Origin: an uncultured virus (IMG/VR IMGVR_UViG_2061766007_000832)
Lineage: Duplodnaviria; Heunggongvirae; Uroviricota; Caudoviricetes
Virus record (IMG/VR): IMGVR_UViG_2061766007_000832
DNA: 64,000 nt
Direction: 5' to 3' (one strand)
The notes under the pieces are model-generated. The model worked only from the letters and a program-made list of their open reading frames with translations. It was not told the DNA's origin and ran no database searches. Shown piece after piece: positions 1,485 through 40,649 of the stretch. Each line of letters opens with the position of its first letter. The stretch's first letter is position 1. The position numbers and the translations under genes were made by a program.

Positions 1485-2195
1485 TCACTCCCTGTATCCG
1501 TCCATGAATGATCCGAAATCTACAACGGGTGAGTTATCCTCTGCTTTTATAATATCATAATAATCTACGCAGTTACGTACATAATCGTCAAACTGTTCTT
1601 TGATCATGCGATTTATTTCCGGTGGAACAAAGGTTGCCGGGATCTTCTGCATGGCNNNNNNNNNNNNNNNNNNNNNNNNNNNNNNNNNNNNNNNNATAGG
1701 GCTTTCTTCCAGCGACTTTATCAAGGCACGGGGGCAAAGGAAATGCCGTGCGAAACAAAGCGCTTCGGCTTCCCTGACCTCTTCCGGGCGTGACCCGTCA
1801 TGCTTGAGGATGATATGCCCCAGCTCACGGGCAAGCGCCCTTTGCTGCAGGTGAAAGGCCAGACGCATATTGTAAGCAACAATGTACTTTCCATCTTTAT
1901 AGGATGTAAAAGCGTCACCTGCACCGAACATACCGATTACATCTTTTCTGTCATACCCGGTCACCCCTGACATTTCAGAGAAAGAAAGCACCAATNNNNN
2001 NNNNNNNNNNNNNNNNNNNNNNNNNNNNNNNNNNNNNNNNNNNNNNNNNNNNNNNNNNNNNNNNNNNNNNNNNNNNNNNNNNNNNNNNNNNNNNNNNNNN
2101 NNNNNNNNNNNNNNNNNNNNNNNNNNCTTTCTGGAAATAATCTGCATACTGTGAGAACATGGCCTTTACCACGTTCAAAGCCTGTTCCCGTTGCG
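1485..2195 (-). CDS. ImmA/IrrE-like metallopeptidase (anti-repressor), gapped
   Basis: ALARELGHIILKH (HExxH-like, first His replaced by Arg) and EAEALCFARHFLCP; lies directly downstream of the repressor. Start approximate. Confidence 0.75.
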
Positions 2196-2555
2196 CCTTT
2201 GGCAGTTTATCGATGCCGTTTGCAAGTATTTTCGCTTCATCTGTTCGTNNNNNNNNNNNNNNNNNNNNNNNNNNNNNNNNNNNNNNNNNNNNNNNNNNNN
2301 NNNAAGATCAATAACCGTTTTTCCCAATACAACCAATTCATCTACATCAAAATACCGTGCCAGCTTCCGCAATCGCTCACCGGATGGATCTTTCTTGCCG
2401 GATTCCCATTCGCTGACGGTTGGACGGGACACGCCAATTTCGATAGCAAGCTCTTTTTGCTGTATCCCTTTTTTCTTTCGNNNNNNNNNNNNNNNNNNNN
2501 NNNNNNNNNNNNNNNNNNNNNNNNNNNNNNNNNNNNNNNNNNNNNCTAACTGCAA
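2175..2555 (-). CDS. XRE-family HTH repressor (CI-like), gapped
   Basis: RKKKGIQQKELAIEIGVSRPTVSEWESGKKDPS; divergent from the Cro-like gene. Boundaries approximate. Confidence 0.85.
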   Translation of the reverse strand: MQLXXXXXXXXXXXXXXXXXXXXXXRKKKGIQQKELAIEIGVSRPTVSEWESGKKDPSGERLRKLARYFDVDELVVLGKTVIDLXXXXXXXXXXXXXXXXXXXEQMKRKYLQTASINCQRRNGNRL

Positions 2556-2588: not shown

Positions 2589-2618
2589 TTGACAGTTAGC
2601 TAACAGTAGGTGTATGAT
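2589..2618 (+). promoter_or_regulatory. Early lytic promoter with palindromic operator
   Basis: TTGACA-18 bp-TATGAT; the spacer contains the palindrome GTTAGCTAAC. Confidence 0.7.
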
Positions 2619-2662
2619 GCTTTCGTAGGTAGCCGGATGTAAAGTTAATAGGAGGTGATACG

Positions 2663-2851
2663 GTGTTTCGGATCAAGGAACTGCGACAGGCGAAGGAAAT
2701 GAGCCAGAGTGAGCTTGCTCACAAGGCGAATATCTCCAAGCCTTTTCTTTGTGACCTTGAGAATAACCGCCGTGGGGCGAAACCGGAAACGCTCGGCAGG
2801 ATTGCCGATGTGCTGGGCGTTCCCGTTGACGATCTCAAAGAGGTCGGATGA
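2663..2851 (+). CDS. Cro-like XRE HTH protein
   Basis: IKELRQAKEMSQSELAHKANISKPFLCDLENNRR; GGAGGTG RBS. Confidence 0.9.
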   Translation: MFRIKELRQAKEMSQSELAHKANISKPFLCDLENNRRGAKPETLGRIADVLGVPVDDLKEVG

Positions 2852-3054
2852 TGGAAAGGCTGCTGAACGTAAAGGCCATTGCAGAGCGGTACGGCTGCAC
2901 AGCGCAAAGCGCACGAAACTACATCAGACGGATTGACGGACACCTTGAGAATCCTATCGGTGTTTATGAATCTGACCTGATGGCGTGGGAACAGTCCCGG
3001 AGAATCGGCGCTCCGGTAAGGCAAATGAGAGTACCAAGAAAAAGGGAGGGCTAA
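2848..3054 (+). CDS. Small HTH / excisionase-like protein
   Basis: LLNVKAIAERYGCTAQSARNYI; position after cro. Confidence 0.55.
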   Translation: MMERLLNVKAIAERYGCTAQSARNYIRRIDGHLENPIGVYESDLMAWEQSRRIGAPVRQMRVPRKREG

Positions 3055-3058
3055 TCAA

Positions 3059-3370
3059 ATGATCATCACAGGCTATCCGATGAATAATGCCGCTCTGGAT
3101 GCGGCCTATGAAGCAGAAAGCGCCCGGATGTTGGAAGAACAGCAGATCCAAGAGGAACCTGTACCGGAAATGCGCAAGCTGGACGAACAGGAAACCGTCA
3201 ATGCTTATGCAGGGTGCGCCCTTGCGGTGAGCTGCTTTGACCATACGCTGAACTGGATTGCGGAAACGATTGACCGGGCAAAGGGTACGGCTGAAGCTGN
3301 NNNNNNNNNNNNNNNNNNNNNNNNNNNNNNNNNNNNNNNNNATAAGATTAAGGAGGTGTGGGACAAGTGA
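3059..3370 (+). CDS. Hypothetical early protein (putative sRNA target)
   Basis: ORF with GGGAGGG RBS; gapped. Confidence 0.7.
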   Translation: MIITGYPMNNAALDAAYEAESARMLEEQQIQEEPVPEMRKLDEQETVNAYAGCALAVSCFDHTLNWIAETIDRAKGTAEAXXXXXXXXXXXXXXXKIKEVWDK

Positions 3371-3490
3371 TCAGCTATTACAGCCCTTACGGTATCAAGC
3401 CACGGGGTCAGCGCATTACCCTTGCTGATCGTATCAGGATGCGCAGGGCAAGAAAACGCAAGGAAAGGGAGTGGAAGCCGGTTTGGGGAT

Positions 3491-3563
3491 AAAAAAGCCC
3501 CGGCTCATAGAGCCGAGGGATGACCGAAGGTAAATGTAAGAGGGCTAATCAAACAAATCCTTC
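3491..3563 (-). ncRNA. Putative ~70-nt antisense sRNA
   Basis: Minus-strand promoter TTGCGG-17-TACAAT (3598-3570, extended TG) and terminator CCCTCGGCTC-TAT-GAGCCGGGG-C-T6 (3519-3491); carries 14 nt complementary to 3046-3059. Confidence 0.6.
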
Positions 3564-3618
3564 CTGTGTATTGTAGCACAGGGAGGGAACAACCGCAATA
3601 TGTAGGAGGTTCCACAGT

Positions 3619-4490
3619 ATGAACAAAACTGACAAAGTTGCACAGAGCGTTGAACAGAATACCGAGCTGATTGTAGTGACCCAGCTTCCCGTGATTAAAG
3701 ATCAGCTCATCGAAGTCAAAGGCCGCATTGAGGAACGGGCGAACAATGCGCTGTCCATTGTATGCACCGAAGAAACCTATAAGCAGGTCAAACAGGTTCG
3801 TTCTGAACTGAATAAGGAATTTACCGAGCTGGAAGATCGCCGGAAGGAAATCAAGGCGCAAATCCTCAAGCCGTACCAAGACTTTGAAGCGGTGTATAAG
3901 GACTGCGCCGGTGACCTGTACAAAGCGGCAGACATCAAGCTCCGTGACAAGATCGCAGAGGTTGAGAACGGGCTGAAAGAGCAGAAAGCAACTGACCTGC
4001 TGGCCTATTTCACCGACTACCGGGCAAGTCTTGGCATTGATGAAGATTATGTCAGCCTTGCGGATGCTGGTATTAAGATCGGCCTTTCTGACAGCCGGAA
4101 ATCCCTGCACGAACAGGCGGCGNNNNNNNNNNNNNNNNNNNNNNNNNNNNNNNNNNNNNNGTGATTGATACCCTCGCCCACGGTGACGAAGTGGGCGTTG
4201 AGTACAAGAAGAACGGTTTCAACCTGACCGGCGCAATGCTGATTGTTGAGAACCGGCACAGGGCAATGGAAGCGGAAAAAGCCCGGCGTGAACAGGCCAG
4301 AGCAGCGGAGGAAGCGGCAAAGATCGCTGTACAGAACGTACAGGCGGNNNNNNNNNNNNNNNNNNNNNNNNNNNNNNNNNNNNNNNNNNNNNNNNNNNNN
4401 NNNNNNNNNNNNNNNNNNNNNNNNNNNNNNNNNNAGCTGGTTGCCTTGCGTGATTTCCTTGTGGAAGGAGGGTATGAATATGTCTGCTAA
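3619..4490 (+). CDS. DUF1351-like coiled-coil protein (one gene split by gaps)
   Basis: LIVVTQLPVIKDQL...RSELNKEFTELEDRRKEIKAQILKPY; usual position upstream of recT. Confidence 0.7.
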
Positions 4491-5445
4491 TAATGCCCTG
4501 ACAGCGCAGAAACAAAAGTTTTCAGCGGCAATTTCCACAGAAACATACCGGAATCTGATCAATAACACCCTTGGTGACCCGGAGCGGAGCAGACGGTTTG
4601 TAGCGTCCATTACATCAGCGGTTGCCGTGAATCCGGCGCTGCAGGACTGCGCCCCGTCTACCATTCTTGCCGGTGCGCTGCTCGGTGAAAGCCTTAACCT
4701 GTCCCCTTCCCCCCAGCTCGGTCAGTATTACCTTGTCCCTTTTGAAAACAAGCTGAAGGACAAGGAAGGAAAGACCTTGTGGGTCATGGATGAAGAAGGA
4801 AAGCACGTACTGGACAAAAACGGCAAATGGCTTGCCATGACAGAGAAAAAAGCGCAGTTCGTGCTTGGTTTCAAGGGCTATATCCAGCTTGCTATCCGTT
4901 CCGGTCAGTACAAGGACATTGACGCTATTGAGATCAAGGAAGGTGAATACCTCGGAAAAGACCCGGACACCGGAAAGCCCCGTTTCAGCTTCATTGAGGA
5001 CGATGACGAACGGGATGCACGGCCTGTCATCGGCTACCTTGCCTACTTTGAGTATTTGAACGGGTTCAAGAAAAGCCTGTATTGGTCGAAAACCAAGATG
5101 ATGAACCATGCAGACGAATATTCACCGGCTTTCTCTGCACAGGNNNNNNNNNNNNNNNNNNNNNNNNNNNAGGAAGAACTCTGGAAATACTCTTCCTTCT
5201 GGTACAAGAATTTTGACGAAATGGCGAAAAAAACCATGCTGCGTCAGATCCTTTCCAAGTGGGGCATGATGAGTATTGAGCTGCAACAGGCATACGTGCA
5301 TGACTCGCAGTTTATCCAGATGAACGAAAGCGGTTCTTTCGTGGGTGACTATGAAGATCCAATTCCGGCAGAAACACCCACGGTAGAACAGAACAAGGAA
5401 GCGGAACAAGGCGAACCGCAAAAAGTCAGCCTTAATGACCTATGA
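4480..5445 (+). CDS. recT: RecT-family single-strand annealing protein
   Basis: LNLSPSPQLGQYYLVPF, AQFVLGFKGYIQLAIRSGQY, FDEMAKKTMLRQILSKWG; start MSANN. Confidence 0.92.
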   Translation: MSANNALTAQKQKFSAAISTETYRNLINNTLGDPERSRRFVASITSAVAVNPALQDCAPSTILAGALLGESLNLSPSPQLGQYYLVPFENKLKDKEGKTLWVMDEEGKHVLDKNGKWLAMTEKKAQFVLGFKGYIQLAIRSGQYKDIDAIEIKEGEYLGKDPDTGKPRFSFIEDDDERDARPVIGYLAYFEYLNGFKKSLYWSKTKMMNHADEYSPAFSAQXXXXXXXXXXEELWKYSSFWYKNFDEMAKKTMLRQILSKWGMMSIELQQAYVHDSQFIQMNESGSFVGDYEDPIPAETPTVEQNKEAEQGEPQKVSLNDL

Positions 5446-15409: not shown

Positions 15410-15453
15410 AGTATCAAGTTAGTATCAAGTTAGTATCAAGTTAGTATCAAGTT
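15410..15453. repeat. Perfect tandem repeat (AGTATCAAGTT)x4
   Basis: Read directly; intergenic. Confidence 0.95.
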
Positions 15454-16187: not shown

Positions 16188-16568
16188 AACTCATCCTTCT
16201 TTCTGAAATAAAATGATAATGTTTCGTTTCCACTGTCCCAGGAATCCAGATAATCGCCATTCAGAATACAAACGGCATGGCTTCCCGTTCCGACAATGTA
16301 CGTTCCTTCCGGATACATCTCGCAGAACTCTCTTACCGTCACACACTCCGGACACCGTTTCGGAAGCAGGAATGGCTCAAAGCCACGGTCGTACAGGTAC
16401 AGTCCCCATACGTGGTTCACGCTTGGCATACTGCACTCAGATCTGCCCACACGGCAAAGATCATCGTACACCTTGTACCAGTCCTTGCCTGTTGCGATGC
16501 AGATTGACCTGATCACACAGTCCGGTTCAGTCCTGCCGAGTGGATTCGGGTTTGCATAGATCCACATT
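16184..16568 (-). CDS. Putative papain-like Cys peptidase
   Basis: NPNP...DCVIRS (Cys), GSHAVC (His), DSWDSG. The 5' end is repeated at 16603-16712 across a 10-N gap. Confidence 0.6.
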
Positions 16569-16711
16569 ACGCACACTCCGGACTGATACCANNNNNNNNN
16601 NCAGATCGTCGTACACCTTGTACCAGTCTTTCCCGGTCGCAAGGCATATAGCCCTGATCACACAGTCCGGTTCAGTCCTGCCGAGCGGATTCGGGTTTGC
16701 ATAGATCCACA

Positions 16712-16891
16712 TTACGCACACTCCGGACTGATACCACAGTCTTCAAGAATCATGTCGACAATCGAATCATCGTCCGGTCGCAGATCCATCAGCGTGGCTG
16801 TGAGGAGCATCATGGCATATGCCGTCTCCGGACTGGTCCCTATTGCGGAGCATATCCTGTCAACATTCTTTTTATATCTGCGTGGGAACAT
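16712..16891 (-). CDS. Small hypothetical protein
   Basis: GGAAGGTG RBS, MFPRRYKK... Confidence 0.6.
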   Translation of the reverse strand: MFPRRYKKNVDRICSAIGTSPETAYAMMLLTATLMDLRPDDDSIVDMILEDCGISPECA

Positions 16892-19851: not shown

Positions 19852-22076
19852 TTAGTTGTCATATAATATTTTCTCAAAGTTAAGCTGATCACTTGTAACG
19901 CCGCTGATATAATCATCAAGAGCAAGCATATCAGCTTCTGCATTGATAGTCCATGTTTCCAACGGCAAACCAAGAGTAACGCAAAGGTTTAACCATGTGG
20001 AATCAATCCCGCTTGATGACAGATTGATAAATACCTCGTTTCTTCCAGTCCTTAATTCTGTTGCTTTTGTGATTTCTGCCGTAATTGAATCACCGGAAGG
20101 GAGTCTGCCTACCCTTGCACATGGATCATACGCAACCACTTTCATCAAGTTGTTATGGTAGAATGAAATCCATGTTACCGCTCGTTGCATATTGTACTTT
20201 TTAACAATCTCAACAAGAGATAACACCTGTGCGGATGTAAAAGATCCACCACTTATTTCTATATAAGGGAAAAGTCCTTTGTTTCGGCAGAATACAATGA
20301 ACTGTTCAAACGTTGGTATCTTTGTTCCTGCGTATGTGGAACTTACTGCGATACCAAAGTCATATTCAAGCGCCTGTGCGTATGTTATTGATGCAATATT
20401 TACCGTTCCGGATATTTCCGTTCCATCAGAATTTCTTGCCGTTCTGTTGATTGATTCGTCATGGAGTAAAACAGGCACACCGTCAGAAGTGAACCGGACA
20501 TCAGTTTCCACAAACTTGAATCCTTCTTCAACTGACTTCTGATATGCAGGAATAGTGTTTTCCGGTGCTATGTAAAACCCTCTGTGATTGATTCCTTTTA
20601 CCCTGTGAGAATCGAAGTCATAGGTCACAGGATCATATACAACAACGTTTCCACTTACCGTTGCGAGAAAAGCAATATTGCTTGTTGTAATTGTCAATTC
20701 ATAATCATCGAACCCACGGAATGTAAAAGCAACCTGTTTTACATTGCTTCCCGGTGTGTATGTNNNNNNNNNNGTGTAAAACCCTCTGTGATTGATTCCT
20801 TTTACCCTGTGAGAGTCAAAGTCATAAGTCACAGGATCATATACAACAACGTTTCCGCTTACCGTTGCGAGAAAAGCAATATTGCTTGTTGTAATTGTCA
20901 GTTCATAATCATCGAATCCACGGAATGTAAAAGCAACCTGTTTTACATTGCTTCCCGGTGTGTATGTCAGGTTTAACAGCATAGCTGTTGCCGATGTAAG
21001 TGTCCTTCTGTAAAATGTTCCGTCATTTAACCACTCACAGGCANNNNNNNNNNCCCATCTGAAAGCGTGGTCGGTATGCTAACCATTCCATCCACATTGT
21101 TTTTCATGTCAGAGACAGTTTTTACTGTATTCGGTTCTCTATTGAAAATCAATGCGTTATATGCGTTTGCTTCATCCTCTGGTGTGAAAACTGCTTCAGC
21201 TTTTTTTGTTGTCCAGAAGAAATACTCTCCGTCAGCAGGACACGTATATTTTAAAGTTGTGCTTTCGATCGCATGAAGCACCGTCATATTATCGGTATAA
21301 TATCCACCGCCAAATTCAAATATCCACGTATTATCCCTATTTACTGTGTCACCTTTTTTCAAAGACAAGTATTGCCCACTTGCAAAGGACATACGTTTAT
21401 TATTTGAACCGGATGCTTCTGTTCCGTTGCTTACATAGCGGACCAATCCTGCTTTATATTTTGGAGGAACAATCGTTCCGTCATAATTCAGCAAACGATT
21501 TTCATAATGCCCAGATGCTTCTTCAACAGTATTTAGTTCGGCAACAACATCTGAAGATAGTTTCTGCTTCGTAACGCTTCCGTCCTCAATAGATGCTGTT
21601 GACGGACTTACCCATACAGGATGAAGATTGTTGTCTAATGACAAAACCTGACCTGATGTTCCAGCGGTTGACGGTGCATCCTGTTTGCCTTGAATAGCTG
21701 TCAATACATCAGTTACCTGTTCCCCTACAGTTAGCTGTGTCCAATGCGCTGCTGTCCAGCTTTCACTACTCTGAATGGCACTATTCGCAATGTAATACAG
21801 TCCTTCATGAANNNNNNNNNNAACATCAGTTACCTGCTCCCCTACAGTTAGCTGCGTCCAATGCGCTGCGGTCCAGTCTTCACTACTCTGAATGGCACTA
21901 TTCGCAATGTAATACAGTCCTTCATGAATACACGGCTGGCCCTGGGCAACAGGAAAAGTCAGATCCGCATAGTTAGGTGCAATGATGCCTACACTATTCT
22001 CCTGCCGTTCACGCAGATCGTTATAGAGTAATTGTACAACTTCATTTGAAGCAGCCTTTTTAATTATTTCACTCAT
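19852..22076 (-). CDS. Tail-associated protein with C-terminal glycerophosphodiester phosphodiesterase (GDPD); probably one gene, broken by gaps
   Basis: INHRG, APENTIPAY, VETDVRFTSDGVPVLLHD, KIPTFEQF, TWTIN, GVTSD; N-terminal fibre-like segments. Confidence 0.8.
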
Positions 22077-24909
22077 GCGCTCACCCCATATCCGTCAATA
22101 ATCGCCTGTGCGTCTGCCAGTGTCATGTATGTAACAGGTTCCAGCTTCGTACCGCCTGTACTGTCCGGATTGCATCCAACGTATACATCACCCATGAGAC
22201 GTTCATTGCCTTCCCAGTCGAGAACCCGGGCATTGGAACGAGCATCGTCTGCGGTTCCGTTACCGATGATCTCGACATAGTTCATCTTTCCGGCCTGATC
22301 AATCCAGTGCGATGCAGTCCAACCGGAGTCCGTGTTCTCTGTTTTACAGATATATCCTTCCACAACGGTCTGTTCGTCAACAAGCCTTGTGCGTTTCCGC
22401 TTNNNNNNNNNNTATCCTTCAGCGTGTGAGAAGCTCCCTGTCGCAATAGTTTGGAATCCTTCGCTGTGCGCTCCGTCACCGCTTGCAACTGTAATGTCAC
22501 CTTCACTGTGACTGAAATTGCCTAAAGAACCAGAAGTATAATTTGTCCCGTTTATTTGGAACGATCCTCCATAACCCTCTGCGTGTGATAACGCTCCGGA
22601 TGCAATCGTATTACGCCCTTCGGCGTGGGCGTTGGTACCGCTTGCAAGTGTGCCGTTCCCTTCTGCATGAGATTGCGGTGCTGAAGCGATGGTATAAGCG
22701 CCCTCAGAATGTGCCTGTTCTCCTGAAGCGAAGGTGTTCTGTCCTTCTGAGTGNNNNNNNNNNCATGCCAACAGTGCATGTTTCACCAGGGGTCCACTCT
22801 GTCCAGTTGTCGTAGCTGTCAGCGATATTATACTTACCGGACGCATGGCTGAATGCACCCGCAGCAATGGTTGATGCGCCTTCAGCATGGCTTTGCGGAC
22901 CGGAAGCGATAGTCCCGCCACCTTCAGCATGTGCGTCTGTTCCGGTAGCTTGTGTTCCGCTACCTTCAGCATGTGCGTCTGATCCGGTAGCTTGTGTCCC
23001 GCCACCTTCAGAATGAGAACCAATACCAGATGCGGTTGTGCCTGAACCTTCTGCATGCGCATATGAACTTGATGCGGTTGAATTATACCCTTCCGCATGT
23101 GCTCCGACAGCAGACGTATTTGTGTTATATCCTTCAGTGTGTGAGAAGGCTCCTTCCGCAAGAGTTTGGAATCCTTCGCTGTGAGATCCGTCACCGCTTG
23201 CAACTGTAACGTCACCTTCACTGTGACTGTAATCGCCCAAAGAACCAGAAGTATAATTTGTTCCGTTCCTTTGNNNNNNNNNNGTTGGTACCGCTTGCAA
23301 GTGTTCCGTTCCCTTCTGCATGAGATTGCGGTGCTGAAGCAATAGTATAAGCACCTTCAGAATGTGCCTGTTCTCCTGAAGCGAAGGTGTTCTGTCCTTC
23401 TGAGTGCGCTCCTGTACCTGAAGCAACGGTTTTATCGCCTTCGCTGTGGGAGCTTGTTCCGGACGCTCTTGACGTATATTCAGTTGAGTTATACGTAAAG
23501 ATTCCGCCAGTTCCTTCAGCATGAGAGTTGGTTCCGCTTGCTAAAGTTGACTGACCTTCCGCATGGGCAGCCTGTCCGCTCGATTTTGTTTCACGGCCCT
23601 CGGCATGAGAAGAATTCCCTGTTGTTTCGGTATAATATCCTTCAGCGTGAGAATAGTCTTCTTTTGCATTGGAATGATATCCCTCAACATGGGCATAATC
23701 TTCAGTTGCTTCTGTAAGATTGCCTTCAGCATGCGCTCCGTTACCGCTTGCAAGCGTATGGTATCCTTCAGCATGTGCATATAGGCTCGTTGCGCTTGTA
23801 TATTCGCCTTCTGCATGTGCAGCTTCTGCTGTTGCCCCTGTCTGGTGTCCTTCGGCATGAGCGCCTACCCCTTGTGCGGTAGTAAAAGAACCTTCCGCAA
23901 AAGCTCCATTTCCTCTCGCCGTCGTGTACCGTCCGAAAGCATCTGAGGCAAGACCTGACGCTTCGTTTTCTTCACCAAACGCAATGGATGCTGCACCAAC
24001 ATTGCTACCTGCAGCTCTTCCACGGCTCAGTGTGGTTTCGAGAACAGTGTCCCGCTTGTCCGCTTTCCGTGTCTCAAGGTCACCGCTTGTGATATCAATG
24101 TACTGTGTTCCCGTCCATCTGTACTGGTGGTTGTTTGAAAGACTGATGTAGATTTTTCCGCTTTCACCGGGCATTGGGAACATGCTCAGTGATGCAAACT
24201 CGAGAACATCGTCAACATAGCTCGGCAGCTGTTCAGACGGCACTCGACCGGAAGCATCGAGTCCTGCCACGCCGTTTGCAGAGCCGATCTGTGCAGTGTC
24301 TATTTTCCCGCTCAGTTCCTGCTTTGTGGCAAAGTTGTTTAGTCCGAGCTGCTGATTGAAGTCCGTAGGATCAGGGTTCTGCAGGTCGCCGTTGTTCGTC
24401 CAGGTCATTACACCGTCCGTAATGTGCGGAGTAAATACTGCACCAGGGTCGCCTTTGATCTTACCTTCTTCAATCGCCTTCTCGATCTCGGCAATGACCA
24501 TGTCCGGAATCTCTTGCACGACTTCCATGGCATCATTGATAACACCAAGCGCCTGTTCGATAAAGCTTTGCTCTTCCGGAGTCGGCTCTGTGGTCGGTAC
24601 ACTTGCCCTGGCACGTACGGGAACATGGTTGCCATAGATCGTAACGGACTTGTTCTCGCCCGTCACGTACAGCCAGAAGTACACAGGCTTTCCTGTCTTC
24701 GTAACATTGTACGGGATCACAACTCCGGACGCATCGCCAAGTTGTTTCTCGGCAGGGCCAATGCTCTTGTTTGCGAAATGCACCTCATAGGAAAAAGGCA
24801 GATCGATGTTCTTAAACTGAATCTTCTGCCCAAAGTCATACTGCCATATGAAGTTTTCTTCCCCTACGGGTCTGTCTATGAGATCGTACTCAATCACATT
24901 TGCCGGCAT
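22073..24909 (-). CDS. Baseplate/tail-fibre protein with BppU-like N-terminus and 14-aa SHAEG (YadA-head-like) repeats; gapped
   Basis: IWQYDFGQ, YEVHFAN, LPSYVDDVLE, many (S/A)HAEGxxTxASG repeats, IIGNGTADDARSNA. Confidence 0.85.
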
Positions 24910-24944: not shown

Positions 24945-24983
24945 AAAAAGCACCAAACAATGATTTCTCACCGTTTGGTGCCT
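24945..24983 (-). terminator. Attenuator before the fibre gene; contains conserved hairpin copy E (24967-24983)
   Basis: 14-bp stem GCACCAAACGGTGA-GAAA-TCATTGTTTGGTGC-TTTTT; element AG-G-CACC-AAAC-GGTG-AG. Confidence 0.8.
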
Positions 24984-25005
24984 CAACATATTCTTTTACG
25001 AATAT

Positions 25006-25034
25006 ATTGTACACGAAACTTACTTGTTTTGCAA
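25006..25034 (-). promoter_or_regulatory. Promoter for the fibre genes
   Basis: TTGCAA-17-TACAAT. Confidence 0.7.
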
Positions 25035-26231: not shown

Positions 26232-26529
26232 CCTCCTCGTAACGCTTCACTTCGGCAATTGCTTCAGCGCTTACAACAGGTTCCGATGCTTCCTGTGCCT
26301 TTTTCGCTTCAGCTTCTTCTGCTGCTTTGCGATCCGCTTCACACATCGCAACGAAAGCTGTAAACAGATTCTTACGAACAGTACTGATTGTAATTCCGAA
26401 CTTTACCACCTCCTCGTTATTGTAGGTAAGTGTGTCAAGCCGTCTGATGCTGTCATCAATTACGTCAAGCACAGTTACTGTCTGTTCCTCCTGAGGTGCT
26501 TCCGGTACGAGTTCGAGTTTGTTTTCCAT
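26200..26529 (-). CDS. Hypothetical acidic protein after the tail-tip gene (variant copy at 26814-27085)
   Basis: MENKLELVPE with AGGAGG RBS. Confidence 0.7.
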   Translation of the reverse strand: MENKLELVPEAPQEEQTVTVLDVIDDSIRRLDTLTYNNEEVVKFGITISTVRKNLFTAFVAMCEADRKAAEEAEAKKAQEASEPVVSAEAIAEVKRYEEGVQDGNAEAK

Positions 26530-27104
26530 TGTGTTTTCCTCCTTTTTGTTATGTAGCGCGAACATAATAATATTTCACGGCACCGCCACATGAAACCCTA
26601 ATCCCCCAGTAGTTTCTTCCTCCTGCTGCAGTGAATGTTCCGAGGTCTGTCAGCGCACTTGATCCTGAAGCACCAAGGTTGTTTGCCAAAGAAGCAAGAT
26701 CGCTTGCAACCGCATGAGACTGGCTGATAGAATGAGATGTGGACGGAATAGTATACGAATAACTCAATTCTCCGACTTGGTCCCAAGAATAACTTGACGG
26801 TGGNNNNNNNNNNGGCTTCTGCGCTTACAACAGGTTCCGTTGCTTCCTGTGCCTTTTTCGCTTCAGCTTCTTCTGATGCTTTGCGTTCTGAAATAATCAT
26901 TGCATTGGCACAAGCAAACAGATTGTCACGAACAGTTCCGATCACGATTCCAAACTNNNNNNNNNNNAGGTAAGTGTGTCGAGCCGACCTATGCAGTCGT
27001 TGATAACGTCCAACACAGTTACGGTCTGCTCTTCCTGTGCCATTCCCTGCGGTACTTCCTGTACCAGTTCGAGTTTGTTTTCCATTGTGTTTTCCTCCTT
27101 TTTG

Positions 27105-30100
27105 TTAAGTCGTGTGAACATAATAGTATTTCACAGCACCGCCACATGAAACCTTAATTCCCCAATAGTTTCTTCCGCCANNNNNNNNNNNNNNNNNNNN
27201 NNNNNNNNNAAGCACCAAGATTGTTCGCCAAAGTTGCAAGGTTATCTGCGTATGCGTGAGATTGACTAATAGAATGAGATGTGGACGGAATTGTGTACGA
27301 ATAACTCAATTCTCCGACTTGGTCCCAAGAATAACTTGACGGTGGAATCTTATCGTATGCGCTTTTCTTTGGCGTATATACGTTATACTTCCCATTTTCG
27401 ACACCAGCCCACCAATAAGAAGTTGCTCCTGTAAGAGCAGCTTGCCATCCAGCTTTAAAGGCATCCTTCCATATTCGTGTTGGAGTTGCCCCCCAATAGT
27501 CATCCTTTGACGCAATTACTGTACCACCGCCATTTTTTACTTTTACTCTAAACGGATGCTTTAAGTTCGAATTATAATACGATCCTGAAATAACCTGATA
27601 GTGTTTATATGCATCCCCGCTTTCCGTATAAGATTCTTCGGTTGTTATTGTAAGTCCGCCTATTGACGTATTCAGTCCTTCAGCATATGCATCTCGCCAT
27701 ATCTGTGTTGGGATCCCTTGCCAATAGTCATTCTTTGTTTTATCTGACATGCCTGTTGACTTTACTCTTGTTGTAAAAGCGAACTTCACGGTTTTATTCG
27801 CACCTGAACCGGATACAGTTTCATATGAGTCAGCAGCGCCACATGTATTTTCAATAGAAACGTTTGCCCATACATCACTTTTACCGTTTCCGTAAGCGTT
27901 GTTCGTTCCCCTTGCAACTGCTGTTCCGGCTGTACTTCCTTTGCGAAGGTATGTATAAGAGTTGTCACTTGTCACATAATACTTTGTTTCATCTGCGCTC
28001 CCACCAACCGTACTTGGCGGTGTTTTAACTGTCATATAGTTTATTGAAGTGTTCGCTGAACTCGGAAGGGATACTTTACCGTAAGCTGCCGTCCATCCGC
28101 TGTTGTATTTGTTGTGCGCAAACTGTGCATACGTTACATTGCTGTACCTCAAATAAACCGTATTATCATCCTTATTCTGAAGCACATAGTTCCTCTGCAC
28201 ACTGTCCCAGGAAGAGTCCGGTGTGTATCCGGGCCAGTACACACTCATCGTAGACGTGGTTCCTGATGACGGGAAGTGCATCGTGTTATAATACGCACGC
28301 CATCCAGCTGTATAACCGTTTGAATATTTGTTGTGTGTCAGCTGAGCCTTTACATCATTGCCAACCTTAATATACGCAACGTTATTGTCAGATGAAAGCG
28401 TATACGTTGTGGAGGTTGCATTCCCGTCAACTGTACTCGGTGGTGTCTTTACAACCATCGTCGTACCAGTTCCGTTTGCGGGAAGCGTGACCTTGTTGTA
28501 GGCAGCCGTCCATCCGTTTGCGTAGTCTGAGATGACGTTTGACAGCAGCGTCGTTCCGTTGGCATTTACAGCTACCGTCCTGTTTCCGGAGCTGTTCACG
28601 CTGCCGGTGCTTAATGAGATCTGCACCTCTGTGATGGCGTTGCTGCTCTGGTTCCGCGTGATCTTCGCATTGTTTGAGTTAATGCTCAGACCCACCGCAT
28701 TTTTACCGGCTGTCACACCTGCGTTGTACCCTGTCGTGTACTTGTTGTGCGTCACCTGGGCGATGATGCTTCCGCCTGTATTCCCATACCGGATATATGC
28801 CTTGTCGTTGTCGCTTGTTACGTAATAATTGTATGATGTGGCTGTTCCACCAACAGTACTGCTTGGGCGTTTGACTTCAATGTACTGCAACCTGTCAGCT
28901 TCTGGAACGGCAGCCGCAGGGAATGTTCCAGTGCTATCTCTTGCAGCAGACCATCCAGCTGAATAGTCTGTGATTGTAACGGTTGCCGTCGTGTTGCTTC
29001 CGCCGGCAGTCACGGTCAGTGTCCGGCTTCCGTTGCTTAAGCTGCCAGAGTTAATGCCCAGCGCAATGGAAGGAACAGTTTGTCCTGATCCTGCGCTGAT
29101 CGTAACATTGCTTCCACTTGCAACAAGGGAATAATTAACAGAACTGTTTGGAATCGGATTGCCGGAAACCGTATCGACAGCCTCGATATAATACTGACCG
29201 CTTGTTGCCCCAAAGTGTGCCCTTGCATTTGTGGTTGGCACATTAACTGTGACACTGCTCAGTCCGATATATCCGGACCCGGGTGTTACTGTTCCGTTTG
29301 ATGTCACGGTCTTGCTCTGCAACTTGCCAGAAACATCTGTTGTAACATTACCAACATCAACGGTTGTTTCTCCGTCGTCATATGTGGCTTTCAGCGCAAG
29401 TATTGCAGTTGTGCCGTTCCATGTTACATTCGCATTCGGAACAGCCGAAACAATGGTAGTATATCTGCTTACTCCCTGCGGATTTGCTGTTGCAACAAGC
29501 TTCCTGCTGCCGTCCCACTGAATTCCAACTGATGTGGGTTCAGCAGTACTTTGCGGAACGTCAATCTCAATATCGCCAAAGCCAACATATCCACTTCCGG
29601 CAGAATACAGTCCGTTTGATGTGATTTTCGCAGTGCCTGTTTTGCCCTGTAGGAAGTTGGCAATATCCATCGTTACATTGCCAACCTCCACGGCTGTTTC
29701 TCCTTCATCTATGGTTGCTTTTAAAGCAATCGTAGCGATTGTTCCGTCCCATGTCACATTTGCATTTGGAATGGCAGACATCAACGTAGTATAACGTGAT
29801 ACATTCTGTGGGGTTGCGCCAACAGTGAATTTTCTACTGCCATCCCATCCGGCGCTCAATGTGGTGGCTCGACTAAAAGAATCTACATTTTGCCAGTCTG
29901 AGTCATTGAAATCCTTTTTCTGTAATGTATAAGTATTTCCCGATTGCGTGATTCGTAGCTCAGTAATTGCATTATGTAGGTACTTATTATTTTGAGCACC
30001 GGATCCATTTACTCCAAGAACAAAATCATCAGCATAGACATATCCGCTGGTACTTATTGTTCCGCTTGAATATATACTCCTTGCATTTACAACAGGAATA

Positions 30101-31293
30101 CTTGCAATTGCTGACGAGATATAGTCTGCATCAATCGTGTCAGCAATTGTCTGACCAAGCAAATAAATCTTATTTGCATTGATCTTTACACTGCTTCCGG
30201 CATTATTTACAGCCAGCGCAATGCTCGCTGCGGTAACATTGCCGTTTGCGTCCACAACACCCTCAACCCTGGTTTCCCAGCTGGAGGCAGTCTGTTCCGT
30301 ATAAGACCGTACGCTGTTTACTTCATCAATGAACTCGTTCCGCAGATGCGTAGCAGTGATTTCAAACTCACTGCGTAAGCTGTTCGCTCCGTCTATAAAT
30401 TCATTCCGCAGATGAGTGGCTGTAATCTCGAACTCACTGCGCATACTCGTCATCTCATCAACGAACTCATTGCGCAGATGAGTGGCTGTAATCTCAAATT
30501 CGCCACGAACGCTGTTCACTTCATCAATGAACTCATTTCGCAGATGAGTGGCTGTAATCTCAAATTCGCTACGAACACTGTTCACCCCATCAGTGAATTC
30601 AGTCCGCATATGCGATACAGTGACTTCAAAATCTCCACGCAGACTGTTTACATTGTCTACGAACTCCGTCCGCATATGCGAAACAGTTACTTCAAAATCT
30701 CCACGNNNNNNNNNNNNNNNNNNNNNNNNNNNNNNNNNTTCAAATTCACCATGAAGACTGTTCACTTCGTCCGTGAACTCTGTCCGCAGATGTGACGCGG
30801 TCACTTCAAAATCTCCACGAAGACTGTGAACCTCGTCAATAAACTCGGTCCGCAGATGAGAGGAGGTCATGTCAAAATAACTGCGCAGGCTGCCAGCTTC
30901 ATTATGGAACTCTGTCCGCAGATAGCTTTCCGTAATCGCCAGGGAACTGTGCAGTATCCCGTCTTCACTTGTAAAATTCCGGAAGATCCCTTCCTGACTC
31001 CGTATACCAGCTGATCCCCTGCCGTACTTTTTCCGGCTTACCTTTGCAATCGGTTCACGCTCTTTATTGCCCGTTGAAATGATCTGTACGGTCGGTGCGT
31101 TTCCTTTCCACACCATACGGGTTACGTTCGCAGGGCTTGTATATGTATCACCGCCACGGCTAACAGTAATCATATCGCCGGCTTCCGTAGACCAGTCTGA
31201 AAAAGCATCCGCTTCAAACGGATGGTATGCCGGCGCATTATTAAGTCTCTGAAGGATCGGTTGCAGTGACGCTCCGGTTATCTGTGCTGCCAC
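27105..31293 (-). CDS. Large tail-tip / host-specificity protein with several internal repeat families
   Basis: About 1400 aa; 22-aa repeats FEITATHLRNEFIDEVNSVRxE, VKINANKIYLLG, Ser/Thr/Gly-rich beta repeats. End adjusted across the gap. Confidence 0.85.
30300..30940. repeat. 66-bp imperfect tandem repeats encoding the 22-aa repeat
   Basis: Recurrent CGCAGATGAGTGGCTGTAATCTC-like units. Confidence 0.9.
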
Positions 31294-32471: not shown

Positions 32472-32500
32472 ATAATACCACATATAGTATTAATATTCAA
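32472..32500 (-). promoter_or_regulatory. Internal tail promoter
   Basis: TTGAAT-17-TATTAT with extended TG, followed by ACTAC. Confidence 0.6.
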
Positions 32501-32888
32501 TAAACTTAAGCTTAAGGCTGAAATTTGCCCGTTCGTCACGGGTTGTGGAGTAATACTTTGCTTCACCGGTCCGGTCGCCAACGTAATACCGTCCGGTGTA
32601 GCTTGAGTTGAATGTGCGTGGATCCGGTGCAGTCATCATGAACTCTTCTGCGTTGATGAGGGAGAGGATCTGCTGGAGCATTTCCCATTCGATACTCTCC
32701 CAGCTGAACTCGTAATTGATCTTCGTCGCCACACGGGCTCGGTGAAGGGTTCCGGTTGCGTCACGGTTGCCGGATGTGTCGAGATCGCCTACCTGGTATG
32801 TCCACTTGGAAGGATCAGGAATGTTCGGAGTCTGGCTGTTGCCAATTGTGATCCCGAGCTCGTAGTTGTAATGCCTCACGATAATCAT
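32490..32888 (-). CDS. Distal tail protein (variant copy at 32956-33341)
   Basis: IPDPS, SGNRDATGTLHR, YYVGDR, LKFIEY; directly after the tape measure gene. Confidence 0.75.
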   Translation of the reverse strand: MIIVRHYNYELGITIGNSQTPNIPDPSKWTYQVGDLDTSGNRDATGTLHRARVATKINYEFSWESIEWEMLQQILSLINAEEFMMTAPDPRTFNSSYTGRYYVGDRTGEAKYYSTTRDERANFSLKLKFIEY

Positions 32889-33347
32889 TCCTCCTTCTTA
32901 CACTTCAGCACCCGTCACAGCGGCTACCGCTGCGCCNNNNNNNNNNCATATAGTATCAATATTCAATAAACTTAAGTTTAAGGCTGAAGTTTGCACGCTC
33001 GTCACGAGTGGTAGTGTAATACTTTGCTTCACCCGTACGGTCGCCGACATAATACTTCCCGGTGTACATCGTATTGAATGTGCGTGGATCCGGAGCAGTC
33101 ANNNNNNNNNNNNNNNNNNNNNNNNNNNNNNNNNNNNNNNNNNNNNNCTTTCCCAAGTGAACTCGTAGTTCACCTTCGTCGCAACGTACGCACGATGCAG
33201 TGTGCCGTTTGCGTCCCGGTAACCTCCGGTGTCCAAGTCGCCAACCTGGTACGTCCATTTTGATGGATCCGGAATGTTAGGAATGTTTCCGTTCCCTATG
33301 GTTATCCCAAGCTCGTAGTTATAATGTCTCACGATAATCATTCCTCC

Positions 33348-40023: not shown

Positions 40024-40649
40024 TTACGGGATATACTCTGCAATCACCTGTCCGCCAATCCGTTCCGCTTCTTCCTCGAGATCACGCAGGGTGTTGTACA
40101 TGAATGGCCTTGCAGCCATACCTGCCGTCCAGTGGAACTGTCCGTCACTGCCTCTGTATACCCATCCATCGAGTCCGTGACCGTTCTTGTCATAGACATA
40201 ACCGTTAGGTTCCGGATGTGACTGAATGGCTCCGACAGCGCCGGTTCCGTATTCCACAAACAGTGCGTACGCTACGTCTGTCGTAACCACGCCTTCATGT
40301 TCACTGAGCATTTCTGCCCGGATGCTTTGAGAAAGCGCTCCTGTGTCATACGCAGGATTCCAGAAGAAGATCAGTTCGGCNNNNNNNNNNTAATGCCCGT
40401 TGTGATAATGCCTTCCTTGTCATTCAGCATTGCTGCCTGAAGGCTTTCTGAAAGCGCTCCTGTGTCATACGCAGGATTCCAGAAGAAGATCAGTTCGGCC
40501 CTGGCGATCTCCACACCCTTTTCAGTCAGCGTTTCGATAAGGTGAACCATGGCAGCCTGTAGATGATTCCGGAAGTCTTTAATCGCTTCGATTGCCCGTG
40601 CAACGGAAGCCGGGTCGAGAGTCATCGTGATGTTCTTCAGAACGATCAT
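40024..40649 (-). CDS. HK97 gp10-like tail completion protein (partly duplicated across a gap)
   Basis: DTGALSES, YALFVEYGTG, GMAARPFMY. Confidence 0.8.

Follow-up and report, generated by a model that had tools for sequence, protein, structure and literature searches.

The 64,000-nt stretch of DNA analysed here (the window) belongs to an uncultured virus of the Caudoviricetes (IMG/VR record IMGVR_UViG_2061766007_000832), a rumen prophage, and its rightward early operon contains, on the opposite strand, what is very probably a gene for a small RNA (sRNA). This minus-strand unit spans positions 3598 to 3491, with a promoter, about 72 nt of RNA, a hairpin and a run of six T. The original prediction, made from the letters of the window, had described a unit with promoter TTGCGG-17-TACAAT, a transcript of about 70 nt and a U-tailed terminator, and all of these elements are present as it placed them. 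The predicted RNA would expose, in the loop of its first hairpin, a seed that matches the start region of an early gene, the open reading frame (ORF) 3059-3370, further called ORF 3059. The features of the unit and its proposed target are as follows.

3593-3598, minus strand: -35 element TTGCGG, 17 nt from the -10 element.
3570-3578, minus strand: extended -10 element, with TG (3578-3577), one base, and TACAAT (3575-3570).
3491-3563, minus strand: predicted sRNA of about 72 nt, its 5' end placed at 3563 +/- 2 and its 3' end in the T-run.
3540-3553, minus strand: seed, the complement of GAGGGCTAATCAAA, a C-rich anti-Shine-Dalgarno sequence in the loop of hairpin 1.
3491-3518, minus strand: predicted intrinsic terminator, with a stem-loop at 3518-3498 (9 pairs, 7 of them G-C) and T6 at 3496-3491.
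3559-3568 and 3577-3586: inverted repeat bracketing the -10 box, which can form a 10-bp hairpin on the plus-strand messenger RNA (mRNA).
3044-3062, plus strand: proposed trans target, from the Shine-Dalgarno (SD) sequence to the start of ORF 3059, with 14 Watson-Crick pairs (3046-3059) and 19 contiguous pairs if G-U is included.

The terminator is the top-scoring terminator-like site between 2000 and 5000. Its stem-loop begins about 50 nt past the minus-strand promoter, and it overlaps the TAA stop codon (3490-3492) of the small ORF 3358-3492. The stem includes a U-G pair, the plus-strand counterpart of which would be a C-A mismatch, and only the minus sense has the T-run. The promoter was not listed by a generic promoter scan, because its -35 element matches only three of six positions. 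Folding of the predicted RNA gives hairpin 1, which holds the seed, and the terminator hairpin, at about -24.8 kcal/mol (z = -2.3), and the unit folds better as minus-strand RNA (-24.9) than as plus-strand RNA (-21.7). It scores 59.9 bits with R1, a model of the type-A RNAs described below that was built from five sequences, the window's own among them.

The word GAGGGCTAATCAAA occurs at the two sites given in the original prediction, 3540-3553 and 3046-3059, and at no other site in the window (both strands searched, up to two mismatches). The copy at 3046-3059 begins within the SD sequence (GGGAGGG, 3044-3050) and has as its last base the A of the start codon of ORF 3059 (ATG, 3059-3061). The complementarity had been put at 14 nt, or at 16 if G-U pairs are counted; the first figure stands and the second proved too short, with 19 contiguous pairs over 3044-3062 at -29.5 kcal/mol, the best site in the first 12 kb. 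Among the 304 start sites on both strands of the window ORF 3059 ranks first (-29.9 kcal/mol, against a mean of -13.8 and a standard deviation of 3.8), and the cofold gain at its start is -19.4 kcal/mol, while four other early starts gain -3.2 to -8.2. It is conceivable that such a repeat is due to chance, or that it is a neutral remnant, left over from a duplicated gene start next to a fortuitous terminator. An identical pair of 14-mers within 600 nt was present in 12 of 100 first-order random windows (mean 0.22 pairs), and 4 of 100 shuffles gave at least two matches to the GAGGGCTAATCAAA word. Taken alone, the 14-mer repeat is thus weak and at best suggestive evidence, and it gains significance because the unit, the seed and the matching start regions recur in relatives. 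Since they do so in independent loci, we regard chance or a neutral remnant as extremely improbable.

Relatives were collected by means of the DUF1351 protein, the gene of which directly follows the unit, and this gave 28 loci (two in viral contigs, one in a genome and 25 in metagenomes); two scans of viral contigs with seed patterns were a further source. Nine of the 28 loci have a minus-strand unit in the same slot (L003, L004, L007, L010, L011, L013, L015, L020, L024), 18 lack it and mostly have a small zinc-ribbon ORF abutting the gene, and one, L019, is too short at its end for the presence of a unit to be judged. The pattern scans added three loci with the seed of the window (L029, L030, L034) and three with a second seed (L036, L038, L040), next to eight matches without a unit (L031-L033, L035, L037, L039, L041, L042), so that the unit-bearing loci besides the window number 15. 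A composite scan of both strands of 477,402 bases (TTGNNN-17-TANNAT, 35-90 nt, a hairpin of at least 6 pairs and a T-run) yielded 16 matches, of which 15 lie in the slot before the recombination module (the window and 14 loci) and one at 24945-25034 of the window; the unit of L007, with a weaker -10 element, was missed by it. The possibility that the original prediction had named as fatal to it, a duplicated gene start that is not conserved, is not borne out, since unit and seed are kept in relatives.

According to their seed most units are of one of two types. Type A comprises the window, L004, L029, L030 and L034, in which a 7-nt loop and its surroundings hold the complement of GAGGGCTAATCAA. 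Type B comprises L010, L011, L013, L015, L024, L036, L038 and L040, in which the complement of GAGGGTATCAA is located around a loop of 5 nt. The promoter-hairpin-terminator architecture and its position are kept while the sequences diverge. In all five type-A units the -35 element is TTGCGG or TTGCGT/TTGTGT, the spacing is exactly 17 nt, and the -10 element consists of TGn plus TACAAT/TAAAAT. The 14-nt seed is invariant in the five members, and the flanking stem and the terminator vary. Their helices have 86.5% of cells paired, as compared to 32-57% with slid partners, and changes on both sides occur in 4 of 21 pairs; in type B the corresponding number is 5 of 18, mostly owed to L015. The loci are not near-identical copies: in a subset of the unit-bearing loci the identity of the flanking DUF1351 protein to that of the window is 56-70%. 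The gene after the unit in L029, L030 and L034 is not DUF1351 but Mu Gam-like plus ERF, or ERF alone, and the genes upstream are homologous to those of the window, so that the unit appears to mark the border between early regulators and the recombination module.

All features of the proposed family (TTGNNN-17-TANNAT, a C-rich hairpin 1 loop, a terminator and an antisense position before the recombination module) were found in the window, four type-A and eight type-B loci, and the predicted unit belongs to a family at the boundary of the immunity/early-regulator genes and the recombination module in phages of rumen and gut Clostridia. Model R1 does not find type B, except for L015 at 18.6 bits, and the two types are therefore joined by architecture and not by a common model; a MAFFT alignment mispaired the two seeds and was left unused. 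An exact 25-nt seed pattern had no match in the viral contigs. R1 gave five weak matches in genome G001 and no family member among 151 sampled genomes of the class of G001, the sole match in that set (L075, 32 bits) being an ordinary gene-end terminator that was discarded. In Faecalibacterium phage Roos, the closest cultured relative by the DUF1351 protein (42.7% identity), no gap that could contain a unit precedes the gene.

The conserved element might also be thought to act as part of the plus-strand mRNA, for example as processing or stabilizing hairpins, or as a decoy or stand-by SD-like site before the recombination genes, with the minus-strand promoter and terminator as look-alikes. The plus-strand RNA of the intergenic region in the window indeed folds well (-43.8 kcal/mol, z = -4.4), and in the inverted repeat that flanks the -10 box, which extends into DNA upstream of the predicted minus-strand start, one pair is G-U on the plus strand. 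Yet the minus-strand RNA is more stable than its complement in all 13 distinct units, with L003, L020 and L007 counted, and in every unit the T-run adjoins the GC hairpin in the minus-strand sense only. Moreover, -35 and -10 elements with exactly 17 nt between them occur at a fixed distance across the unlike sequences of types A, B and C, and the type-A sense copy lacks a start codon at a working distance. A purely plus-strand function, with no sRNA, is very improbable. The inverted repeat itself is present in all five type-A units, with arm sequences that differ by locus, and one of the arms also forms the 5' side of hairpin 1. The repeat may be an operator or else fold in the plus-strand mRNA as a hairpin. 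A separate observation concerns the type-B units L010, L011, L036, L038 and L040, which have a perfect palindrome, TAACCGG-N4-CCGGTTA, between the -35 and -10 elements, of which L015 carries a co-varied version; it looks like the binding site of a dimeric regulator.

The start regions matched by the two seeds provide the main argument for a function in trans. In each locus, with the unit excluded, identical stretches shared with the sense version of hairpin 1 were sought, the minimum length being 9 nt. Type-A seeds are accompanied by GAGGGCTAATCAA start regions, GAGGGTATCAA start regions accompany type-B seeds, and cross-matches are absent, which is the co-variation of seed and ribosome-binding site that the original prediction had proposed to look for in related prophages. 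The A-core word is absent from the type-B loci and the B-core word from the type-A loci, neither is present in 18 relatives without a unit, and L019, the incomplete locus from the type-B lineage, contains the B-core word. The matches within type A concern different genes: in the window it is the 14-nt match at ORF 3059, in L034 a 14-nt match at a 105-amino-acid ORF with an N-terminus that resembles that of ORF 3059, and in L029 a 13-nt match at a 64-amino-acid homologue of the small basic ORF of the window (3358-3492). Type-B loci have one to three matches of 10-12 nt, all at starts of ORFs of at least 35 amino acids, apart from two 9-nt ones (L024, L036). The genes concerned are a 151-159-amino-acid HTH_3 protein, encoded by the second early gene, a 101-104-amino-acid ORF, and the DUF1351 gene itself. 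The type-B sense copy resembles the start region of the DUF1351 gene less two or three spacer bases, and retains the start codon with the bases that follow it (TTGGA in L010, L013 and L036, ATGGA in L015); L024 is an exception, the gene having ATG and the copy TTGG. A short plus-strand ORF starting from the type-B sense copy was considered by eye and rejected, type A having no start codon there.

The matches were compared to shuffles in which GAGGG was fixed and the remaining seed letters were permuted (500 per locus, 10 non-redundant loci). The own match was reached by none of the shuffles in the window, L029 and L024, by one in L034 and L036, by two in L010 and by five in L013 and L015, so that in 8 of the 10 loci it was reached by at most 5 of 500. 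The contigs of other samples point in the same direction. The stretch is carried by DNA contigs from bovine, goat, other gut, manure and food-production metagenomes, and among the differences listed for contigs of four runs over 2860-3700, beside which there are 23 further ones, none falls in 3540-3553 or 3046-3059. Many of the listed differences are located in the terminator (3504-3531) and just beside the seed (3538, 3539, 3555). Several contigs match solely from 3540 on or solely over 3025-3058, with unlike adjoining sequence, and one contig has 439 other letters where the window has 404 between 3024-3058 and 3463-3553; it retains the start region and the seed, and the ORF between them differs.

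The start-region word is by itself ordinary, since 22 other viral contigs have GGAGGGCTAATCAA[AT]TG at the start of genes from about ten unrelated families; these contigs have no R1 match and no second copy of the word within 2.5 kb, and a 23rd match is the contig of L034. What is unusual is the coupling of the word with a matching unit. Among these contigs (L043-L065) a 136-amino-acid protein opening with MAELIGG occurs in seven and a 130-amino-acid protein opening with MTLIDV in three. A 17-nt word in L068, which lies inside a 362-amino-acid coding frame on the other strand and is without a unit, was set aside.

Besides the commonness of this word, several results weigh against repression in trans. 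L030 has only a 9-nt match (12 of 13 positions when counted by eye), at a 96-amino-acid ORF 2 kb downstream, and L004 has none in 732 nt of upstream DNA, the three genes of which have different start regions; in the shuffle comparison both fail, their own match being reached by 77 and 318 of 500, respectively. In L003, L020 and L007, which have other first hairpins, scoring of hairpin 1 against the start regions of the locus made only the cis site stand out, and the common role of the slot may thus be a function in cis. In four of the five type-A RNAs the seed lies partly in a short inner stem, leaving a loop of 7 nt. The type-A covariation score is modest, as it was matched by 24 of 500 shuffles, the loci form few lineages with perhaps five or six independent events, and none of the runs that carry 3343-4100 is recorded as RNA.

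The main alternative is an antisense RNA that acts in cis only. By position the unit is antisense within the operon, which makes the early mRNA itself, in its intergenic part, a perfect complement of the RNA and a target in cis, a point that the original prediction did not make. Early transcripts that reach 3563 contain this 72-nt complement, the sense copy of the seed included. Like OOP RNA of phage lambda, it would pair with this intergenic stretch and, through RNase III cleavage or interference by converging polymerases, damp or uncouple the expression of the recombination module, the match to a start region being a by-product of start-region copying. The units with unmatched first hairpins and the lack of good matches in L004 and L030 agree with this, as does the sense copy of the seed being unpaired in minimum-energy plus-strand folds of the window, L029 and L030, though not of L034, where it is in a hairpin of its own, or of L004, where it has long-range pairs. 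The plus-strand hairpin with an open sense copy suits fast pairing in cis, with titration or RNase III cleavage. A role in cis only leaves unexplained, however, why an invariant loop is found amid a drifting rest, why matches recur on different genes (one like ORF 3059 in both the window and L034, the small basic one in L029 and three genes in type B), and why 8 of 10 loci do better than the SD-preserving shuffles. It is a possible but doubtful explanation.

The reading to which we give a slightly better than even chance is that the RNA is a trans-acting translational repressor of early genes with matching start regions, and the comparison of loci supports the central idea of the original prediction, a small antisense-oriented RNA with a seed for the ribosome-binding site of an early gene. 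A promoter of the sigma-A type on the minus strand (TTGCGG-17-TGnTACAAT), constitutive or separately regulated, would produce the RNA of about 72 nt, with transcription stopping at the intrinsic terminator, and hairpin 1 would display the C-rich anti-SD loop. This loop would nucleate the pairing of 19 bp with the SD-to-AUG region of ORF 3059 or, in type B, pairing with the start regions of the HTH gene, the 101-amino-acid ORF and DUF1351. Pairing would bar the 30S subunit from the message, with less translation and probably lower mRNA stability as a result. The same RNA would bind its template region in the early mRNA, leading to binding, titration or cleavage. Its role could be either that of a filter for leaky transcription in the lysogen or that of a timer for the shut-off of early genes in the lytic cycle. 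Transcription of the RNA, its pairing in vivo, the repression and the timing in the life cycle are all inferred from sequence.

A more elaborate variant, which we consider rather unlikely, is a self-titrating threshold switch that arose by copying of a start region. The early mRNA would hold an unpaired decoy of the silenced start region, kept open by the covarying hairpin. The RNA would absorb weak, leaky transcription in the lysogen, and upon induction the sudden abundance of early mRNA, and with it of the decoy, would sequester the RNA, so that the true start regions would be freed together. If so, types A and B would represent phages that repeatedly made riboregulators by duplicating a start region beside an outward-facing promoter and a terminator.

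The early operon, which contains the target as well as the antisense template, and the genes that face it have the following features.

1485-2147, minus strand: Peptidase_M78 (ImmA/IrrE-like) gene, facing the rightward operon.
2175-2555, minus strand: HTH_3 repressor gene, facing the rightward operon.
2589-2618, plus strand: predicted early promoter TTGACA-18-TATGAT before the Cro-like gene, which would drive the operon with target and antisense template.
2663-2851, plus strand: Cro-like HTH gene, the first of the rightward operon.
2848-3054, plus strand: ORF of 68 amino acids in the rightward operon.
3059-3370, plus strand: ORF 3059, 103 amino acids, partly masked by N, the proposed regulated gene.
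3358-3492, plus strand: small basic ORF of 44 amino acids, convergent with the sRNA, with its TAA stop at 3490-3492.
3619-4164, plus strand: DUF1351 gene (PF07083, 5e-17), the first of the recombination module, with the unit just upstream.
4468-5445, plus strand: RecT gene (PF03837, 7e-36).

A gene for a protein with a metallo-beta-lactamase fold, listed after RecT, is also part of the operon. DUF1351 is a usual neighbour of single-strand-annealing genes in phages of Firmicutes (PMC8093625). In the window 1990 bases are N, in many short blocks that include 3301-3342 within ORF 3059 and part of the DUF1351 gene, and the products of these two genes are therefore only partly known. ORF 3059 has no Pfam or PHROG match, and its product appears acidic and soluble when the translation is judged by eye. 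Nothing in these results marks it as the toxic or lysis-promoting gene for which the original prediction had suggested a second, RNA-based layer of silencing in the lysogen. In the switch region between the divergent repressor and Cro-like genes (2556-2662), palindromes centred on TAGCTAA overlap the TTGACA-18-TATGAT promoter and are likely operators. An operator shared between this switch and the sRNA unit was considered and dropped, as by eye the repeat at 3559-3586 is unlike the TAGCTAA-type palindromes.

The small ORF that converges on the unit calls to mind type I toxin-antitoxin systems, in which case the RNA would be the antitoxin and ORF 3358-3492 or ORF 3059 would encode the toxin. 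The convergent ORF ends at the end of the RNA, and its homologue in L029 bears the start region that matches the seed. Type I toxins are small hydrophobic membrane peptides, whereas the 44-amino-acid product is, judged by eye from the translation, strongly basic and hydrophilic and without a hydrophobic stretch. Furthermore, the targets vary by locus and include a DNA-binding regulator and DUF1351, and an Rfam antitoxin family was not matched. Such a system is very improbable here.

Comparison to databases and to phage RNAs that have been described indicates that the predicted RNA belongs to a new, uncatalogued family. No Rfam family reached its gathering score anywhere in the window; over 3440-3640 there were eight weak matches (E up to 10), the best of which, to unrelated terminator-bearing sRNAs, had 20.9 bits versus a gathering score of 49.5, and RF01695 was not among them. 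A blastn search with 2600-4100 against 50,697 phage records gave no match. A description of such an RNA was not found in the literature searched, including Table 1 of PMC12197685, in which the phage sRNAs are almost all from phages of Proteobacteria and none is from a temperate phage of gut or rumen Clostridia.

The OOP RNA of phage lambda, 77 nt in length (PMC12197685), is the closest in anatomy. OOP and the predicted RNA both have their own promoter and intrinsic terminator and are short RNAs directed against the rightward early operon of a temperate phage, between regulatory and replication or recombination genes, with full complementarity to the operon mRNA. The target of OOP is the 3' end of cII, in cis, whereas the predicted RNA touches only the stop codon of the upstream ORF; its loop matches a start region about 500 nt away, its hosts are Clostridia, and no sequence relation was found by blastn of the phage collection or in Rfam.

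The logic is closer to that of the c4 antisense RNA of phages P1 and P7 (77 nt, RF01695; PMC12197685). Shared with it are a short seed for the ribosome-binding region of a gene in the same operon and copies of seed and target that are direct repeats on one strand; this likeness is one of mechanism and not of membership, there being no match to RF01695. The c4 RNA and the CI RNA of phage P4 are cut from transcripts of the same strand, and c4 lies upstream of its target. The predicted RNA differs in having its own promoter and terminator on the strand opposite to the operon, and one seed where c4 has two. Of the analogy to P1 C4 and P4 CI that the original prediction had drawn, the logic thus remains and the anatomy does not. 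The predicted unit combines OOP-like anatomy with c4-like logic, and by anatomy it is nearer to OOP than to c4 or P4 CI.

The sar RNA of phage P22 (68/69 nt; PMC12197685) is likewise small and antisense in orientation, and it too lies between genes of a regulatory operon. It blocks the initiation of translation of a phage gene, which for the RNA in the window is a proposal. The sar RNA is transcribed across the ribosome site of ant. The predicted RNA, in contrast, would be transcribed leftward from a point about 56 nt before the ATG at 3619 and lead away from it, so that any pairing with a start region would rely on the copied seed. Among chromosomal RNAs of Firmicutes, RsaE/RoxS and the hairpins of RNAIII have C-rich loops that pair with G-rich SD sequences, for which a long single-stranded seed is not obviously needed. 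These serve host regulons, whereas the RNA considered here is borne by a phage and its match runs through the spacer to the start codon of specific phage genes.

The two seed types, each with matching start regions on different genes, amount to a natural experiment, by which the pairing hypothesis becomes directly testable. If repression in trans is correct, the unit offers a handle on how abundant uncultured prophages quiet or time their early genes, including a second HTH regulator, DUF1351 and ORFs without a known function, and it may provide a compact programmable repressor module for Firmicutes.

Elsewhere in the window, the other match of the composite scan (24945-25034, minus strand) consists of TTGCAA-17-TACAAT, about 45 nt, a 10-bp hairpin and T5. 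The hairpin is followed by the ribosome-binding site and ATG of a 563-amino-acid ORF (23218-24909, minus strand) with HAEG repeats that is tail-fibre-like, and a 311-amino-acid ORF lies upstream. This could be a terminated leader that awaits antitermination, or a second small RNA. Furthermore, an 11-nt unit is repeated three times at 15410-15440, and longer direct repeats are present at 16464-16723, 20571-20953, 21706-21915, 26267-27332, 30320-30910, 32492-33334 and 40331-40486, with periods of about 145, 204, 117, 555, 66, 466 and 119 nt. The direct repeats may be repeated protein domains or iterons.

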